Positions 2,744-10,653 of a DNA stretch of 10,653 nucleotides are shown here, piece after piece; positions within the stretch are counted from its first letter, which is position 1; every line of letters starts with the position of its first letter. The translations under genes were made by a program, and so were the position numbers. The notes beneath the pieces were generated by a model. The model saw nothing but the letters and a program-made list of their open reading frames with translations, did no database searches and had not been told where the DNA came from. Location of the stretch: positions 1-10,653 of the IMG/VR virus record IMGVR_UViG_3300036770_002544; one strand, given 5' to 3'. This DNA is from a virus. Taxonomy: Duplodnaviria > Heunggongvirae > Uroviricota > Caudoviricetes.

Positions 2744-2818
2744 GCGACTATAGCTCAAAGGTAGAGCAGGAAACTCATAATTTCTTGGTTACAGGTTCGA
2801 ATCCTGTTGGTCGCACCA
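2744..2818 (+). tRNA. tRNA with CAT anticodon (Ile2-like or elongator Met)
   Basis: Cloverleaf: acceptor GCGACTA/TGGTCGC, loop CT-CAT-AA, T-loop TTCGAAT, encoded CCA. The G27:U43 pair resembles Ile2. Confidence 0.9.
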
Positions 2819-2832
2819 AATTAAATAACTGT

Positions 2833-3207
2833 ATGAAAGTCACTGAAGATCAGTTTCGTTTTGAATGGTTCTCCGGCACAGGCAAAGGGGGACAGCATCG
2901 CAACAAACATCAAAATTGTTGCCGCTGTATTCACGAGCCCACTGGAATCACTGCCAACGGAACCAACAGTCGCAGTCGTGAAGACAATCGTGCAGCCGCA
3001 TATACAACTTGCCGCAGCCGAGTAGAAGCACACTTTCACACAGACACTGAGCGTTATCTCGCCGGCACTGAACGTATTCGAACATATCACGAAGCTGATA
3101 ACCGTGTGGTAGATCATGCATCGGGATTGACTGATAGTTGGACCAATGTTATAATCAAAGGTGACTTTGAGCCTGTGATAACAGCTCGGGCCAAAGCAGT
3201 TAGGTAA
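2833..3207 (+). CDS. stand-alone GGQ peptidyl-tRNA hydrolase domain protein (RF-1 domain, 124 aa)
   Basis: SGTGKGGQHRNK catalytic loop, IHEPTGITA strand, and ERIRTY...NRVVDH motif of class I release factors. Track start 2785 lies inside the tRNA, so ATG 2833 is used. Confidence 0.85.
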   Translation: MKVTEDQFRFEWFSGTGKGGQHRNKHQNCCRCIHEPTGITANGTNSRSREDNRAAAYTTCRSRVEAHFHTDTERYLAGTERIRTYHEADNRVVDHASGLTDSWTNVIIKGDFEPVITARAKAVR

Positions 3208-3493: not shown

Positions 3494-4029
3494 TTAGTTC
3501 AAGTCCAAAACGCGGTCACTTTCAGCGAGACTGCTACATCCAACGTTGCCAAGATGAGGGCGAAGAACCTGATCCCTTGATGCTCGGTATCTACGAGTAC
3601 AAGGATAGTTTAGATCCCGCAGCAGATAACAGCAACAACATGGAGTGGGATCTGCGCACCACTGATTGGATATTGGCCAAGGTCCGTACCAGCGAAGCAT
3701 ACGCTCAAAACTTGTATGCAGCCATGTGCAATAATGACTTTCAACGAAATGAAGTTTGGCCACAGTTAAAAAATCAAACTTGGTCATGCTCCTGGCGCTA
3801 TGCAGGAGGCATTGTTGCAGACATGCGTCAAGAAGGTGACTACATTGATTGGTACTGCTCGGGTATTAGAGGTAGTGCTAGTGAAGAACAACTAGCAGAA
3901 TACTCAGAAGAAGACCGCGAACGGTATCATTGGATGGACCAAAACTTTGTAAGTGAAATGACTGTAACCGATGAAATACGTGCAGATTTGTTTCGTTTAG
4001 GATGGATTGTGATTGACAATTCAGAATAA
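3490..4029 (+). CDS. acidic hypothetical phage protein (179 aa)
   Basis: ORF track; Trp/Tyr-rich segment YAQNLYAAMCNN...WSCSWRYAGGIVAD...YIDWYCSG; function not recognised. Confidence 0.85.
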   Translation: MISSSPKRGHFQRDCYIQRCQDEGEEPDPLMLGIYEYKDSLDPAADNSNNMEWDLRTTDWILAKVRTSEAYAQNLYAAMCNNDFQRNEVWPQLKNQTWSCSWRYAGGIVADMRQEGDYIDWYCSGIRGSASEEQLAEYSEEDRERYHWMDQNFVSEMTVTDEIRADLFRLGWIVIDNSE

Positions 4030-4045
4030 TAAATATATAATATAA

Positions 4046-4335
4046 GTTATTGCTGTATGAAGCAAAGAGAAAAGTGTTCTGGACGAGGGTTCGATTCCCT
4101 CCATCTCCACCAAAAGCATTCTATCCCCACCTGACGAGGAAGGATCAAAAGAACTAAAAAGAATGCTTCTGATGGGGATGATCTGGTTTCGACAGGGCAA
4201 AGAGTAACAGAGTGGACAGCACAAGAGCAACCTTGTAAAAAGAAGAAAATCTATAACTGCAAACGCAGCCAATGATGAGGTATTTGCCTTAGCGGCATGA
4301 TCTCTGGGGCAACTATGCCTTATTACCCAAAATAG
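4046..4335 (+). ncRNA. ssrA: circularly permuted (two-piece) tmRNA
   Basis: The acceptor piece comes first (T-arm GAGGG-TTCGATT-CCCTC, CATCTCC-A-CCA ending 4112), then an intervening segment (4113-4173). The coding piece starts GGGGATG at 4174 (G3:U70 pair) with GGTTTCGAC. The tag ORF 4259-4300 encodes ANAANDEVFALAA*. Outer ends are approximate. Confidence 0.9.
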
Positions 4336-4336
4336 T

Positions 4337-4359
4337 GGAACCTGCTTCGGCAGGTTTCC
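4337..4359 (+). terminator. UUCG hairpin after the tmRNA coding piece (terminator or 3' processing/stability hairpin)
   Basis: AACCTGC-TTCG-GCAGGTT; weak U-tract. Confidence 0.55.
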
Positions 4360-4384
4360 TGCTGAAATTTAACTCAAGGAAATT

Positions 4385-4984
4385 ATGAAAAAACTTTTAA
4401 CCACACTTATCGTAGCCGCTGCTGGTGCAGCATCTGCTCAAACCGTTGACAACTGGACAGCCAGCGGCGCACCTGTGCGCAATGGTACCCAAGAACTGTG
4501 CTGGCGTGATGCTAGCTGGACTCCTGCCACTGCTCATCCCGACTGCGATGGCGCACTAAAGAAACCACGTGTTACTGCAACTGTTCCTGCACCAGTGGCG
4601 CCTGTGGCCAAACCTGCACCACAGCCTGTGGCAGTCAAGCAATCCTATGCTGCCGATGCATTTTTTGACTTTGATAAAACTGTGATCAAGCCCGAAGGCC
4701 GTGCCAAATTGAATACGTTGATTGCAAACATCAACAACATCACTCTTGAAGTTGTGATTGCTGTGGGACACACCGATTCAGTCGGCACCGACACTTACAA
4801 TCAAAAACTAGGTCAGCGTCGAGCAGATGCAGTCCGTGCTTACCTAGTAAGTCAAGGTATTGATCCAAAACGAGTATATACCGAATCCCGAGGTGAGCTA
4901 AAACCGATAGCAGATAATCGAACTGCTGTGGGCCGTGCTCGAAACCGTAGAGTAGAAATTGAAGTAATTGGTACTCGGCGTTAA
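4385..4984 (+). CDS. ompA: OmpA-family outer membrane / peptidoglycan-binding protein
   Basis: Signal peptide, N-terminal CWRDASWTPATAHPDCDG, Pro/Ala linker, and OmpA C-domain (FDFDK, GHTDSVG...YNQKLGQRRADAV, RARNRRVEI); AAGGA SD. Confidence 0.92.
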   Translation: MKKLLTTLIVAAAGAASAQTVDNWTASGAPVRNGTQELCWRDASWTPATAHPDCDGALKKPRVTATVPAPVAPVAKPAPQPVAVKQSYAADAFFDFDKTVIKPEGRAKLNTLIANINNITLEVVIAVGHTDSVGTDTYNQKLGQRRADAVRAYLVSQGIDPKRVYTESRGELKPIADNRTAVGRARNRRVEIEVIGTRR

Positions 4985-5887: not shown

Positions 5888-6096
5888 TTTGCAGTGTTGT
5901 TTAGGCTGATGGGCGGCAACTCGCCAGCAGTCTGTTACTTCTCCCTGATTAGTGTAGCTTTGCCGAGCGAAATAGGACGGAGTTGATATGATGAAAACTG
6001 GTAGACATGGGGTCGATATTAGACCCTGCGGGAAACTGCGTGTGGGTTCAAGTCCCACTATCATTTAAGAAGCATCAGCCTAAACAACATTGCAAA
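5888..6096. repeat. 24-bp inverted repeat (5888-5911 / 6073-6096)
   Basis: TTTGCAGTGTTGTTTAGGCTGATG pairs with CATCAGCCTAAACAACATTGCAAA, with a single G:U. Confidence 0.9.
5982..6066 (+). pseudogene. degenerate class II (Leu-type body) tRNA-like element, loop GATATTA, no CCA
   Basis: D-arm ATG-AAAACTGGTAGA-CAT, stem GGGTC/GACCC, variable arm GCGG-GAAA-CTGC, T-arm GTGGG-TTCAAGT-CCCAC; mismatched acceptor. Confidence 0.7.
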
Positions 6097-6729: not shown

Positions 6730-6850
6730 GGAGACAGAAACTTATCACTTGTTTGTCCACCAACCTAGAGTATGGTGATCGTGCCAACAAAGATAAGCGG
6801 ATAACGTGGACGGTGTATGGGTCATGCCTGTACATAGGCGGTCTCCACCA
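6730..6850 (+). ncRNA. CCA-ended tRNA-like RNA with a non-tRNA body
   Basis: GGAGAC/GTCTCC stem plus A-CCA, closing internal hairpins. Confidence 0.55.
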
Positions 6851-7136
6851 TATAAAAACACATTAGCGAATGCTCGTTGCTGCTGAAAGACAACGTGGGG
6901 ATGATGCAGCCATAAAGTCCTCTGAACGCTTCTAGTGTGTTTCTATATAGTTTTGAAATCAGAGGAAAGACAGAGTGGCGACTGTTCACTGCCTATTAGT
7001 GCAGTGCAAGCACAAATGAGCTAACATGTGTACTGGTTTCGATTTTTTGAAATGTATTGAAGGACGCTGGCAGACCGGCGGGGACTTTAATAGAGTGCGT
7101 AGTTTAATAGTAGAACATCAATACATTCATTTTTAT

Positions 7137-7216
7137 GTGCGTTTGGTCTAAATGTTAGGGCATCATGACATGGGGCTAGAAACCTCAAGATGCGGGTTCG
7201 AATCCCGTAACGCACA
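7137..7216 (+). tRNA. atypical tRNA, apparent anticodon AGA, with an insertion between the D and anticodon arms
   Basis: Perfect GTGCGTT/AACGCAC acceptor, T-arm GCGGG-TTCGAAT-CCCGT, TGGGG-CTAGAAA-CCTCA arm; followed by CCG, not CCA. Confidence 0.6.
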
Positions 7217-7225
7217 CCGTTTTTT

Positions 7226-7312
7226 GGAGATGTAGGAAAATTGGTAACCCCAGTGGACTGTAAATCCGCCGCCCGAAAGGCACTACTGGTTCGACTCCAG
7301 TCGTCTCCACCA
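7226..7312 (+). tRNA. tRNA-Tyr(GTA)
   Basis: GGAGATG/CGTCTCC acceptor, GTGGA-CT GTA AA-TCCGC, long variable arm, CCA. Confidence 0.92.
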
Positions 7313-7401
7313 AGTTTTGATAGTTGCTTGAATCGTGGTTAACTCCACCAGACCGACACGTCTCGATCGTATCGAAGTAAGATTCCAACTATCAATTTAT
7401 T

Positions 7402-7436
7402 GGGCCTCAAAGTGTTCATGGACGCACGTAGAGCCT
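7402..7436 (+). pseudogene. tRNA 5'-half remnant ending at C32-U33
   Basis: GGCCTCA-AA-GTGT-TCATGGAC-GCAC-GT-AGAGC-CT, then unrelated sequence; no matching 3' half in the window. Confidence 0.5.
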
Positions 7437-7484
7437 ATTACCCATGTACGCCGCACATTTGATAAATAAATGTAGGAGAACAAA

Positions 7485-8093
7485 ATGTTTTACTACATGT
7501 ATCAAATCAAAAACAAAGTGAATGACAAAATTTATGTCGGAGTCCATAAAACTTCTGACATGAATGATGGTTACATGGGTTCAGGTAAAGTAATACGTGC
7601 CGCTATCAATAAGCATGGCATTGACAACTTCGAGAAGACTATTCTTGAAACTTTTGAGAGTAGCGAAGAAATGTTCAAGCGTGAAAAAGAAGTTGTAACA
7701 GAAGACTTCCTATCACGTGATGATGTGTATAATTTGCGTCGAGGCGGCTCGGGCGGTTTTGATTACCTAAACAAAACGAGACAAAACAACAAAGCCAAGC
7801 AATACCTCAAAGGCGGACAAACATACGCATCAAGATTAGAAAATGACGAAGAATTTCGCAATGCTGAGTCAGAGAGAAAATCTGCTCTAAACAGACAGCA
7901 ATACGCAAATGGTAGAGTCAGCGTATTCAAAGATTCTGTTTTACAGCAAGAACTTTCTAATAGAGCAAAGCAAGTAAATTTAGGTTCGATGTGGGTTAAC
8001 AACAATACACACGAACGCAAGATCAAAAAGACTGAACCAATCCCAGATGGTTGGGTCAAAGGAAGATTACGCACCGTTGGCGCAGTTGGTTAG
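7485..8093 (+). CDS. free-standing GIY-YIG (Seg-like) homing endonuclease
   Basis: YYMYQIKNKVNDKIYVG, DGYMGSG, catalytic-type E in KREKEV, VYNLRRGGSGG, and C-terminal MWVNN...IPDGWVKGR; AGGAG SD. Confidence 0.9.
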   Translation: MFYYMYQIKNKVNDKIYVGVHKTSDMNDGYMGSGKVIRAAINKHGIDNFEKTILETFESSEEMFKREKEVVTEDFLSRDDVYNLRRGGSGGFDYLNKTRQNNKAKQYLKGGQTYASRLENDEEFRNAESERKSALNRQQYANGRVSVFKDSVLQQELSNRAKQVNLGSMWVNNNTHERKIKKTEPIPDGWVKGRLRTVGAVG

Positions 8094-8147
8094 CGCACTT
8101 GCCTGTCACGCAAGGGGTCACCGGTTCGAGCCCGGTACGGTGCGCCA
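8071..8147 (+). tRNA. tRNA-Asp(GTC), copy 1 (overlaps the last 23 nt of the endonuclease ORF)
   Basis: GCACCGT/ACGGTGC acceptor, G73, CTTGC-CT GTC AC-GCAAG, CCA. Confidence 0.93.
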
Positions 8148-8153
8148 AGTTTA

Positions 8154-8228
8154 GGCTCGTTCATATAATGGTCATTATCCCGGATTGTCTATCCGGAGAC
8201 GGGAGTTCGATTCTCCCACGAGTCGCCA
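8154..8228 (+). tRNA. tRNA-Asp(GTC), copy 2, atypical U37
   Basis: GGCTCGT/ACGAGTC acceptor, G73, CCGGA-TT GTC TA-TCCGG, CCA. Confidence 0.9.
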
Positions 8229-8231
8229 AGT

Positions 8232-8660
8232 TTTGTTGTAGTGTTAGCAAGAGAAAGTCACGCTAGGGCGGCTTCTTCGAAGGGCCAAACTAGTAGAAGG
8301 TTACGGGTTCGATGCCCGACGGATCGGAAGATCCGGGTGCATGGTGGCGCACAGACTGGACAAGTATCCCAAGTGGCGTACCGAGTCCTGCCCGGGCTAG
8401 TGCATACAGGTGAATGGTGTCAATAACGATGGTGACACGTCTGCAACAAATCCTACGTTCTGCCTAATCAGCAGATACTGTGACCCACAGGATGAGAAGT
8501 ACAGTGATATGTACGGGTGGTAGTCTTTGAACCAAAAGGCCGCTAGCAATGCGAGAACGGTCCCGGTCGTGGAGCGGGTGGAGGGCATATTCAAATCAAA
8601 GGCAATCACCGTGGTGCCCAAGAGATGATGTGCTATAATTACCGCCGCGGGATGCAGAGC
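8232..8660 (+). ncRNA. large (~430 nt) highly structured ncRNA, GOLLD-like candidate
   Basis: GC-richer than its surroundings, with no credible ORF, many hairpins and a closing helix 8232-8240/8442-8450; flanked by tRNAs. Confidence 0.6.
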
Positions 8661-8665
8661 ATTAT

Positions 8666-8740
8666 GTCGCATTGGACTTCTGGTGAGGTCATTACCCTTT
8701 CAAGGTAACCAGACGGGATCGTAACCCGTATGCGACTCCA
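8666..8740 (+). tRNA. tRNA-Glu(TTC), copy 2, atypical T-loop
   Basis: GTCGCAT/ATGCGAC acceptor, TTACC-CT TTC AA-GGTAA, T-loop ATCGTAA, CCA. Confidence 0.85.
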
Positions 8741-8774
8741 TTGACAAACATTTTTCACAAGAGTGTTTTTCAAT

Positions 8775-8806
8775 GGGAATATAGTTTAGTGGCAAAATTC
8801 CAGCCT
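8775..8806 (+). pseudogene. tRNA 5'-half remnant (Gly-TCC-like) ending exactly at U33
   Basis: GGGAATA-TA-GTTT-AGTGGCA-AAAT-T-CCAGC-CT is a perfect canonical spacing of positions 1-33 and resembles the TAGTTTAGTGGTAAAACCTCAGCCT segment of tRNA-Gly(TCC). Confidence 0.7.
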
Positions 8807-8813
8807 ATAAATA
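8806..8813 (+). promoter_or_regulatory. T4-type late promoter
   Basis: TATAAATA, 4 nt before the radical SAM ATG; its first T is U33 of the tRNA remnant. Confidence 0.6.
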
Positions 8814-8817
8814 CCAA

Positions 8818-9879
8818 ATGAAATTATCAGATGTTAGATCTCTGGCACTAGAAGTCACTTCGCACTGCAACATTAGATGCCCGCAATGCTCAAGAATTAA
8901 TTGGGACGGGGAACTTGCTGAGTTTATTCAACTTCAGCATTGGGATATTAACAAAATATTACCAAACTTGCAGGTAGAATCAATGCCACAGTTGAGTTTT
9001 GTTCGAATCGAAGGTGACAACGGCGATGCACTCATGCATCCTGACATTGTGGAAATTGTTGAACATTTTTACAATGCTCCGACCAAACCACGAATTTTGA
9101 TATTGACCAATGGCTCGATGAGATCTGCTAAGTGGTGGAAAGAATTTGGCCAAAGATTTAGTGGCCGTTTGCGTGTGCAGTTCAGCATAGATGGTCTAGA
9201 AGACACGCATGCGTTGTACCGTGTGGGTGCAGACTATAACAAAACAATAGAAAATGCGCGAGCATTTATTGCAGGTGGTGGCGAAGCCACGCAACGATGC
9301 TTGATTTTTGATCACAACAAACACCAACTTGATGATATACGAGCAACAAGTTTAGACATAGGTTTTGTAGGATTGAGAATTACTCCTGGAGATCTGTTTA
9401 GATTCCAGGGAGAAAAAACATGGAAGGTATTCTGGAAGGGCAAAAATACACATGATATTGCCCCAATACCGAATTTTGATTTTGATTTCTCGCCGTGGGA
9501 ATACAATAAGACTGATGTACAAATGAGCCCAATACTCGGGTCTGATGAAATACACAAAGATGGGCTAAACCATCTTTGTCCTGTGTTTAATAAAAGAGAA
9601 ATTACTATTACGTACAAAGGACATTTAATACCTTGTTGTATATATCAAGCAGATTTGTATTTCATGCGGGACTTCAATGTAGATTATCAAAATTTAGTCG
9701 GAGATATGAATTTAATGAATTTAAATCTACGAACGCTACACGACATTCTCAGTGATCCGTTGTATTATGGTAATCGATGGGAAAGCATGCTGGCAAGCAA
9801 TAATAGATTTCCAAAGTGTCAAGCCACATGCGGATCACAACTAGATCGCAGAATCATACAAATTCAGGAGCGTTGCTAA
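8818..9879 (+). CDS. radical SAM protein with SPASM/twitch-like C-terminus
   Basis: CNIRCPQC (CxxxCxxC), GDNGDAL, LTNGS, FSIDGL...H..YR, and C-terminal CPV...HLIPCC...CQATC. Confidence 0.92.
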   Translation: MKLSDVRSLALEVTSHCNIRCPQCSRINWDGELAEFIQLQHWDINKILPNLQVESMPQLSFVRIEGDNGDALMHPDIVEIVEHFYNAPTKPRILILTNGSMRSAKWWKEFGQRFSGRLRVQFSIDGLEDTHALYRVGADYNKTIENARAFIAGGGEATQRCLIFDHNKHQLDDIRATSLDIGFVGLRITPGDLFRFQGEKTWKVFWKGKNTHDIAPIPNFDFDFSPWEYNKTDVQMSPILGSDEIHKDGLNHLCPVFNKREITITYKGHLIPCCIYQADLYFMRDFNVDYQNLVGDMNLMNLNLRTLHDILSDPLYYGNRWESMLASNNRFPKCQATCGSQLDRRIIQIQERC

Positions 9880-9966
9880 TATTGGCCTTAGGGCGACCCT
9901 TATAAAGTCGTAAGCACTGTCCAGATAAGGCAGTTAATGTGGGTTCGATTCCCACCGCTCCTACCA
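9866..9966 (+). tRNA. atypical tRNA-Ile(GAT) with a large D-loop insertion (overlaps the last 14 nt of the radical SAM ORF)
   Basis: AGGAGCG/CGCTCCT acceptor plus A-CCA, CTGTC-CA GAT AA-GGCAG (A33), GTGGG-TTCGATT-CCCAC; 101 nt. Confidence 0.75.
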
Positions 9967-9970
9967 AGTT

Positions 9971-10151
9971 TAACAATGTGTTAGAAAGGTGTTGACCACA
10001 CGCCCAACTGCAAGGGAGCCATGTTGATCCAGGGCCGCTAATCGGAGTCATTGACTCGCGTGGGCTGCTCGTCACAGCCGATATTATGTACTTGGAAGGA
10101 AGCCAGCGTAGCAATATGTTGGGTACCTTTAAACGCAATGCAGTATTGTTA
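9971..10151 (+). ncRNA. unidentified structured ncRNA (~180 nt)
   Basis: Closing helix TAACAAT/ATTGTTA, inner GCCCAAC/GTTGGGT and internal hairpins; no credible ORF. Confidence 0.4.
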
Positions 10152-10154
10152 CCT

Positions 10155-10162
10155 TATAAATA
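10155..10162 (+). promoter_or_regulatory. T4-type late promoter
   Basis: TATAAATA, 16 nt before ATG 10179. Confidence 0.6.
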
Positions 10163-10178
10163 TTCCAATAGATTTACA

Positions 10179-10653
10179 ATGGCCCATGCAATAATTTTTA
10201 CAGATCGTGCACCTGTGACCAGGATGTTTGACGACATCAAATTCACCAGTGCATTTTACAGTTATCCAGCAGGCGCATACAAAATTGCATCAGTTCTTCG
10301 CGAGCAAGGACTAGATGTATTGGTAGTTCCAAACTGTTTGAGTTTGAGTTTTGCAGGTGTAAAACATATCATTGAACAAAACAGTAACAATTTACTTTGG
10401 GTAGGTATTAGTACCACATTTTTGACCATTGATTCTTCTCACATACAAGTATATAGAGATCTATGGACCACAACTGATAAACATTATGTCGATACCGACA
10501 TAATGTTTGACAAAGTTGATTCTTACGGAGGAGTTCAAGAACTTGCCTGGTTCACCAAAGAAATTGGTAGAATAAGTTTTTGGTTAGATCGAAATTATCA
10601 TGTGCCGCTGGTATTAGGCGGCAGTTGGGTCACCCGCGTCAAAGACGGTAACT
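10179..10653 (+). CDS. cobalamin-binding-domain protein, probably the N-terminus of a B12-dependent radical SAM enzyme (runs off the window; not in the ORF track)
   Basis: MAHAIIFTD...YPAGAYKIASVLREQGLDVLVV...WVGISTTF...PLVLGGSW, open to the end of the window. Confidence 0.75.
   Translation, partial: MAHAIIFTDRAPVTRMFDDIKFTSAFYSYPAGAYKIASVLREQGLDVLVVPNCLSLSFAGVKHIIEQNSNNLLWVGISTTFLTIDSSHIQVYRDLWTTTDKHYVDTDIMFDKVDSYGGVQELAWFTKEIGRISFWLDRNYHVPLVLGGSWVTRVKDGN

Follow-up and report, generated by a model that had tools for sequence, protein, structure and literature searches.

Why should genes in the transfer RNA (tRNA) array of a phage start at the broken front half of one tRNA gene and end inside a complete one? 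The question is raised by positions 7402 to 9966 of the DNA stretch analysed here (the window), which is the first 10,653 nt of a 74.6-kb viral contig in IMG/VR (record IMGVR_UViG_3300036770_002544, here G000). CheckV rates the contig as 21 % complete, for which reason it is taken to belong to a jumbo phage. The original prediction, made from the letters alone, described the same architecture twice, i.e. a half-tRNA, a promoter-like box, a cargo gene and an overlapping tRNA. Both halves were found where that reading had placed them (7402-7436 and 8775-8806), and both overlaps between an open reading frame (ORF) and a tRNA were confirmed. What it had missed is that the cassette includes the intact tRNA downstream, and that this tRNA is an isoacceptor of the broken one. 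Comparison with related loci makes it probable that these units are homing-endonuclease "disrupt-and-replace" cassettes, which is the best explanation we have. In such a cassette a resident tRNA gene (T1, the broken one) has been overwritten from the anticodon onward by a late-promoter-like box, a gene for a homing endonuclease or a passenger, and a complete, divergent tRNA gene downstream (T2). Wherever T1 can be identified, T2 reads the codons of T1.

The broken tRNA-Asp gene and its nuclease cassette

The first half (7402-7436, + strand) consists of positions 1-33 of a phage tRNA-Asp(GUC) and ends in C32-U33. Its 21-nt core is present in at least 119 IMG/VR contigs, and in 113 places this core is the 5' part of an intact 75-nt tRNA gene ending in GCCA, an unusual phage tRNA-Asp referred to here as type A. 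ARAGORN called every unique type A sequence (51 of 51) as tRNA-Asp(GTC), and the 16 variants of the anticodon stem each keep five of five pairs. In 14 places, including the window, type A stops exactly after C32-U33 and continues as ATTACCC, the start of the nuclease leader. The truncated alleles match the intact ones through position 33 and identity ends at the first anticodon base; the remnant in one related locus (related loci are numbered with the prefix L), L188, is identical to an intact allele at 33 of 33 positions before it diverges there. By homology to these intact genes, the first half is certainly the relic of a tRNA gene, now dead. The generic Rfam tRNA model gave no match to it, either in the scan of the whole window or with the stretch ending at U33, yet it is identical to the 5' part of a tRNA-Asp called by ARAGORN.

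The half is followed on the + strand by a leader (7437-7484) that is conserved among the alleles, with a late-promoter-like box, GATAAATA, at 7461-7468 and a Shine-Dalgarno sequence, AGGAG, at 7474-7478. A hairpin with arms at 7457-7467 and 7497-7507 encloses both the Shine-Dalgarno sequence and the start codon (z = -3.4, none of 200 shuffles being equally stable). A late promoter placed inside a hairpin is a design described for T4 segB and I-TevI (PMC2988022). The leader is 93-98 % identical in all 13 of the other nuclease-bearing alleles, and the nine nuclease contigs that were fetched had the same ~85 nt 5' of the ATG and different left-hand contexts.

The gene behind the leader (7485-8093, + strand) encodes a GIY-YIG homing endonuclease of 202 aa. 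The GIY-YIG domain (PF01541) was recognised with 26.5 bits against a cut-off of 22.6, together with a weak match to SegE_GIY-YIG. The protein shares 41.9 % identity with T4 SegB across 96 % of its length (tblastn, E 5e-45), making SegB its best-characterised relative among annotated phages, and homologues with 76-92 % identity were found in metagenomes. When positions 7200-10653 were compared with GenBank phages by megablast and blastn, only weak GIY-YIG matches were obtained. The TAG stop codon of the ORF lies in the D-loop of the next tRNA, so that the ORF ends 23 nt inside an intact tRNA-Asp(GUC) (8071-8147, + strand; ARAGORN, Rfam 66.3 bits). This replacement isoacceptor, type B, follows the nuclease gene in the window, in L062-64 and in L188, and a variant, type B', follows it in L065-70. 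One or the other was present in every allele reaching that far, joined 1-2 nt past the conserved ...GGAAGATTA end of the nuclease ORF. The inserted unit includes a whole substitute tRNA. Type B without a nuclease gene is also present in G001, one of the two nearest relatives with long contigs; the other, G002 (138 kb), is the closest relative.

The right flank of the cassette is a second intact tRNA-Asp(GUC), type C (8154-8228, + strand; ARAGORN, Rfam). In L133 and L185 an intact type A is followed directly by type C, and in the window and L188 type C is preceded by type B. The clearest comparison is between L126, with an intact type A, and L065, with the cassette. Their left 105 nt are common at 94 % identity and they are collinear for more than 1.3 kb rightward, the difference being type A positions 34-76 in one and the leader, nuclease gene and type B' tRNA-Asp in the other. 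L115 and L067 form a second allele pair, in which only the left flank is in common. Alleles with and without the nuclease unit thus coexist in related phages, and the expectation that relatives lacking the cargo would carry an intact tRNA at the junction holds for the nuclease cassette; for the second cassette it has so far failed, as described below. An arrangement that mirrors that of the window was seen in L144 (~890-931) and L168, where 4 nt separate an intact type A from an orphan 3' part of type B downstream, the latter starting just after the anticodon.

The truncated type A alleles occupy at least seven left contexts and four right contexts. Their remnants retain four different 5' strands of the anticodon stem, three of which are identical to variants of intact alleles. 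Four stem strands on one junction, in at least seven left contexts, fit a repeated invasion of different type A alleles. Type A is broken in every nuclease-carrying allele, and no intact type A gene was found on any cassette-carrying contig or locus examined.

The original prediction had offered as an alternative that the 5' halves are functional tRNA fragments. As functional RNAs they might be regulatory, or might process or stabilise the cargo mRNA at its 5' end, and be kept for that reason. Both halves stand at the start of a transcription or processing unit, three contigs retain the second half, a G-U pair of its D-stem being changed to G-C, and the first 25 nt of the first half are 96-100 % conserved in the 13 other nuclease-bearing alleles. 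The exception is the altered copy of the window itself, which begins with GGGCCTC instead of GGTCTC, so that its acceptor strand is changed. The conservation is, however, no higher than that of the adjacent leader and gene (93-98 %), the layout around the radical SAM gene of the second cassette occurs without the half in L204, L057 and L046-49, and the second half together with the start region of its gene folds in an ordinary way (z = -0.1). The alternative found no support and we regard it as very improbable.

Recurrence of the layout and the isoacceptor rule

Further cassettes were found by searching related loci for orphan pieces of their own tRNAs. A third cassette of the same genome lies outside the window at 13969-14491 of G000, and its type is also present in L065: a 5' part of tRNA-Ile(GAU), 27 nt of which are identical to intact tRNA-Ile(GAU) genes, is followed by ATAAATA, a hairpin, an HNH gene (14036-14416 in G000) and a different, intact tRNA-Ile(GAU). 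The L089 cassette starts with a tRNA-Tyr remnant that matches an intact allele without difference as far as U33; behind it come TATAAATA, a gene of the NUMOD3/phage endonuclease I family and a different tRNA-Tyr. Two cassettes concern tRNA-Phe: that of L119 carries a nuclease gene of the same NUMOD3/endonuclease-I family as L089, and that of L098, in which T1 is broken after position 31, carries a 206-aa ORF with no Pfam family; in both T2 is an intact tRNA-Phe.

T1 and T2 have the same anticodon in five cassette types (Asp, Ile(GAU), Tyr and the two Phe types), which, with ~35 tRNA species per array, is far from what chance would give. The 5' remnants break off at positions 31-33 in six cassette types, and four of the six contain nuclease genes, belonging to three families (GIY-YIG, HNH and NUMOD3/endonuclease-I). 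The suggestion that the capture is endonuclease-driven gained by association from the SegB homologue and from three of the four further types, which carry HNH or NUMOD3/endonuclease-I genes.

It is possible that the pieces are passive debris, i.e. accidental leftovers of illegitimate recombination or deletion in arrays that recombine constantly at conserved tRNA motifs, tolerated near a redundant isoacceptor and without any targeting by a nuclease. Other debris does exist in these arrays, such as a chimera joined in the T-loop (L047), the orphan 3' parts of type B in L144 and L168, and many orphan 3' fragments starting from about position 46-53. The isoacceptor rule could be produced by selection alone, and the second cassette and that of L098 have no recognisable nuclease. 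The clustering of the 5' breakpoints at positions 31-33 in six cassette types and the presence of nuclease genes of three families in four of them speak against this explanation, and a single accident does not explain one junction (U33|ATTACCC) on four type A alleles with many flanks. We consider passive debris unlikely.

In L065 the 3' part of the broken tRNA-Ile persists after T2, starting from about position 44. Both parts of T1 thus flank the nuclease gene and the new tRNA, which places these two inside the old gene. This locus also bears on the possibility of a degenerate or unconventional intron, or of a split tRNA, in which position 33/34 would be the site of an intron holding the cargo, with a 3' exon elsewhere to complete the tRNA. 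The position in the anticodon loop is that of bacterial tRNA group I introns, and a likely true one is present among the related loci: in L190 (6414-6700) a tRNA-Leu(UAA) is split into positions 1-35 and 36-74 by ~213 nt, at the classic site of group I introns. In L065, by contrast, the anticodon and the 3' strand of its stem are missing, the persisting part starting too far downstream. The earlier observations that neither an intron core nor 3' halves are visible were borne out. No group I or group II intron family of Rfam matched the window at E<=10, and no matching 3' half was found in the 74.6-kb contig or the 138-kb relative, including the TATTCCC-N-CCA ending predicted for the second half. 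Neither was a type A 3' half found as an orphan in 1.6 Mb of related loci. For a split tRNA of the Nanoarchaeum type, no separately encoded 3' half was found in the 74.6-kb contig, which is ~21 % of the genome. An intron or a split tRNA is thus highly improbable.

A further conceivable origin is site-specific recombination by an integrase at the anticodon loop, as with prophages and genomic islands, and anticodon loops are classic crossover sites of integrases. Integration, however, leaves an orphan 3' part and restores the 3' end from the element, whereas here the orphan is a 5' part and the restored tRNA is a whole, divergent one. No integrase was found in or beside either cassette of the window, and we give this origin almost no credence.

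The radical SAM cassette and its surroundings

The second cassette of the window has as its left flank a tRNA-Glu(UUC) (8666-8740) and a spacer hairpin (8741-8774), identified by ARAGORN and as an inverted repeat, respectively (both + strand). The tRNA-like 5' fragment that follows (8775-8806, + strand) comprises an acceptor strand, a D-arm, the 5' strand of an anticodon stem and C32-U33. With the stretch ending at U33 it aligned to positions 1-32 of the Rfam tRNA model as a 3'-truncated match with 17.7 bits (E 0.052, in a small search), and it had no tRNA score in the scan of the whole window. Covariance scoring, which had been put forward as a check on both halves, hence gave a match for this half only. 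The first 23 nt of the half recur unchanged in real tRNAs of unrelated phages, and it is conserved in three contigs (the window, L045 and L206). On these similarities it is probably also a relic of a tRNA gene. Its ancestry is ambiguous, as positions 8-33 fit tRNA-Gly(UCC) and the long-armed tRNA-Ile(UAU) of the phage group about equally; that it comes from an isoacceptor of the Ile(UAU) tRNA was considered and is not established. No intact counterpart was found by exact or degenerate patterns in IMG/VR or by a fuzzy search of the 1.6 Mb of related loci, and all that these searches returned were generic genes for tRNA-Trp and tRNA-Gly in unrelated phages. A hidden Markov model of tRNA 5' halves built on sequence only was dropped, since real tRNAs scored at most 10.6 bits and were inseparable from the background.

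The left end of the cassette proper is the box TATAAATA (8806-8813, + strand), 4 nt 5' of the ATG, the first T of which is indistinguishable from U33. In L204, where no half-tRNA is present, homology to the window begins at TATAAATA, and the fragment therefore ends at position 32 or 33. The box is weakly enriched, with five occurrences on the + strand and none on the - strand where ~3 per strand were expected, and the same box lies 5 nt before the ATG in L057. The gene (8818-9879, + strand) encodes a radical SAM/SPASM enzyme of 353 aa (Pfam Radical_SAM and SPASM, CxxxCxxC motif) and not a nuclease, and its TAA stop codon lies 14 nt inside the next tRNA.

Homologues of the radical SAM gene with 42-91 % identity occur in varied contexts. 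L045 (77 %) and L206 (91 %) share the layout of the window, i.e. tRNA-Glu, hairpin, 5' fragment, TATAAATA, gene and a tRNA(UAU) over the stop codon. L204 and L205 lack the fragment and have another spacer before the same TATAAATACCAA-ATG; that the spacer of L204 is a decayed copy of the half was rejected, as the alignment did not support it and the homology starts at TATAAATA. L046-49 also lack the fragment and have a 273-283-aa ORF instead, and L057 and L042-44 present other contexts. The gene is absent from G001 and G002. In one IMG/VR search the relatives of the gene reached no more than 38 % identity and none had tRNAs close by, and a scan of metagenome contigs gave only five loci. Alleles without cargo are found in L194 and L201, where tRNA(UAU) comes straight after the same tRNA-Glu and hairpin and no other tRNA stands between them. 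Among the relatives found, there is accordingly no intact tRNA at the junction of the second half. Another radical SAM-like ORF with a CxxxCxxC motif follows TATAAATA between a type B and a type A tRNA-Asp in L209 (G001, ~1700-2700). It seems that embedded radical SAM genes are common in these arrays.

The intact tRNA over the stop codon (9866-9966, + strand) is a 101-nt tRNA(UAU), called type beta, with a long variable arm and a CCA end; Rfam found it with 41.4 bits and ARAGORN missed it. Six distinct type beta sequences were present among the relatives, some with a radical SAM gene upstream and some without, and four compensatory pairs in the six sequences support the cloverleaf. The tRNA-Ile(UAU)-like genes of the fetched loci (32 unique relatives called by ARAGORN) are 89-95 nt long and also have a long variable arm. 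In bacteria a long variable arm is normal only for the Leu, Ser and Tyr tRNAs, and A73 together with the long arm raises the question of which synthetase charges these tRNAs. L047 (2396-2508), and likewise L046, L048 and L049, contains a chimeric tRNA with its junction in the T-loop: the part as far as the T-stem is the body of tRNA(UAU), the T-stem and 3' acceptor strand that follow are those of the neighbouring tRNA-Asp, and the acceptor stem cannot pair.

Both cassettes lie in a dense array, with 36 tRNA genes and a transfer-messenger RNA (tmRNA), all on the + strand, called by ARAGORN between 2.7 and 21 kb of the contig. Rfam adds two tRNAs that ARAGORN missed, at 7137-7216 and 9866-9963. 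The former (51.3 bits) has an odd, extended anticodon region and directly precedes the nuclease cassette in L161 and L188. Most tRNAs of the array have a CCA end and then AGTTT or a similar spacer. Gaps between tRNAs hold stem-closed spacer units (6847-6951, 7317-7395 and 8741-8774), as do the same positions in relatives, with the stems kept and the inner sequence and length varying. Between the two cassettes there is a G+C-rich structured non-coding region (8229-8665) with a T-loop-like GGTTCGATGCCC, which is conserved among relatives (L045 1-130, L047 2590-2820, L063, L122, G001 and G002), lies directly before tRNA(UAU) in L063 and L122, and has no Rfam match at E<=10. Further upstream, at 5888-6096, a 24-nt inverted repeat encloses 161 nt with a degenerate tRNA-Leu-like piece (5981-6067; T-arm, no CCA), and this arrangement is conserved in L161 and L172. 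Since both cargo stop codons lie inside tRNAs, 5' processing of these tRNAs would remove the stops. The window also encodes a permuted tmRNA and an RF-1-domain (ArfB-like) protein (2785-3207, 4000-4391), and a link between the tRNA-embedded stops and ribosome rescue is possible.

The proposed mechanism and related systems

SegB of T4 is a free-standing GIY-YIG homing endonuclease encoded in a tRNA cluster, which recognises a T-loop motif and cuts after CCAR in many tRNA genes; in crosses with T2L it is inherited at nearly 100 % and drives the inheritance of its tRNA region (PMC2330249). SegB of T6 drives rearrangements of the tRNA region, and its own 3' end recombines with tRNA-Tyr (PMC13096335). 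By analogy, the SegB-like enzyme of the window would probably be made late in infection, from a promoter in a hairpin that masks the ribosome-binding site, as with T4 segB. In a mixed infection the enzyme would cut the type A tRNA-Asp gene of cassette-free phages, and recombinational repair would copy the leader, the nuclease gene and the type B tRNA-Asp from the donor. We infer from sequence that cassette nucleases cut the resident tRNA gene in this way. The retained 33-nt half may serve as a built-in left homology arm, and as such it would allow the cassette to home into type A anywhere in the mosaic arrays. The insertion would destroy its target, and T2 would compensate for the lost tRNA. 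The second cassette, with a radical SAM gene and no nuclease, is most simply seen as a passenger that may have been captured by a similar break-repair event or derived from a nuclease cassette. The anticodon arm is an inverted repeat with an invariant loop, which may be why unrelated nucleases share the U33 junction.

Several points weigh against this mechanism. T4 SegB cuts tRNA genes at the T-loop/CCA end and not at the anticodon loop, and the mechanism accounts neither for the exact U33 junction nor for a junction at 31-33 across three unrelated nuclease families; why types B and B' are attached to the ORF at an identical point is likewise unexplained. The anticodon loop of type B is the same as that of type A, so the immunity of type B is an assumption. 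The second cassette, the weak case, has no nuclease and no intact counterpart of its T1, which may be either Gly(UCC) or Ile(UAU), and its cargo-less alleles have no tRNA at the site. In addition, the contigs compared are fragments (21 % and 35 % complete), which leaves the absence of 3' halves or of intact type A genes unproven genome-wide. In the D-arm of type A there is a T-loop-like motif that might place a SegB-type cut near the anticodon loop; by eye it agrees at only 7 of 11 positions, and we treat the idea as speculation. Capture at the RNA level (anticodon nuclease, RNA ligase and reverse transcription) came into question, since an RNA cleavage site coincides with the junction, and was rejected as unsupported; no search for a reverse transcriptase was made, and nothing in the material studied hinted at one.

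No published description of nuclease-plus-isoacceptor cassettes inside phage tRNA genes was found. The nearest relatives of the nuclease cassette are T4 and T6 SegB, with which it shares a homologous protein, the habitat in a phage tRNA array, a late-promoter-like box and a hairpin at the ribosome-binding site; those enzymes, too, cut tRNA genes, carry neighbouring tRNA genes along and drive rearrangements (PMC2330249, PMC13096335). T4 segB, however, lies between intact tRNA genes, whereas the gene of the window lies inside a broken tRNA-Asp gene, joined exactly at U33, and its 3' end is fused to a complete substitute tRNA-Asp. Another parallel is offered by the mORFs of fungal mitochondria, endonuclease ORFs with a foreign replacement C-terminus that leave the native one dead (Allomyces atp6; Glomus atp6, atp9, cox2 and nad3; PMC3630166). 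In both systems a nuclease gene is inserted in a gene with a divergent functional replacement and a native relic, and alleles with and without the element exist; in L065 the two parts of T1 flank the HNH gene and T2. The targets of mORFs, in contrast, are protein genes in which the C-terminal part is replaced in frame, whereas the phage cassettes affect a tRNA gene, provide the whole tRNA anew and leave a 5' relic. As mORFs, and SegB in T4 tRNA clusters, were already known, the layout is better regarded as a variant of these than as the wholly undescribed route of gene capture first proposed. The first interpretation was supported in part and sharpened, and the layout was shown to recur.

Group I introns of tRNA genes with homing endonuclease genes, e.g. 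in tRNA-Leu(UAA), similarly place a nuclease gene in the anticodon loop and avoid harm, but they do so by splicing, whereas the phage cassettes have no ribozyme or 3' exon and supply a second tRNA gene. Integrative elements directed at tRNA genes share the target, the anticodon-loop breakpoint and the restoration of function by sequence borne on the element; they are driven by a recombinase, restore the 3' part and leave a 3' relic, unlike the cassettes with their nuclease genes, 5' relic and complete new tRNA. Synthetic cleave-and-rescue or home-and-rescue drives, engineered in animals with Cas9, cut a gene that is needed and bring with them a rescue copy of it that resists cleavage. The likeness is in logic only, and the phage cassettes would be a natural analogue.

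A more general reading is that these cassettes form a class of natural cleave-and-rescue drives in phage tRNA arrays. GIY-YIG, HNH and NUMOD3/endonuclease-I enzymes would each cut a tRNA gene at the 5' side of the anticodon loop, insert together with a resistant isoacceptor and keep the 5' half as a portable homology arm, and genes of the radical SAM type would enter likewise, mobilised in trans. We put this forward tentatively, as a generalisation that may well prove too wide.

Introns and inteins, by splicing, offer a selfish nuclease gene two ways of residing in a gene that is needed; the proposed cassettes, which bring a spare copy along, would be a third, and they involve three nuclease families with presumed targets in tRNA anticodon arms. 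In annotation, half tRNAs beside small nuclease genes would be read as relics and not as split or intron-bearing tRNAs. The cassettes would explain why large tRNA arrays of phages hold several divergent isoacceptors, together with remains of dead tRNAs and unexpected genes embedded among them, and the radical SAM genes illustrate how metabolic passengers could ride into them. If the general class is real, such cassettes would be among the main forces behind the turnover of tRNA genes, and behind gene gain, in the tRNA arrays of jumbo phages.

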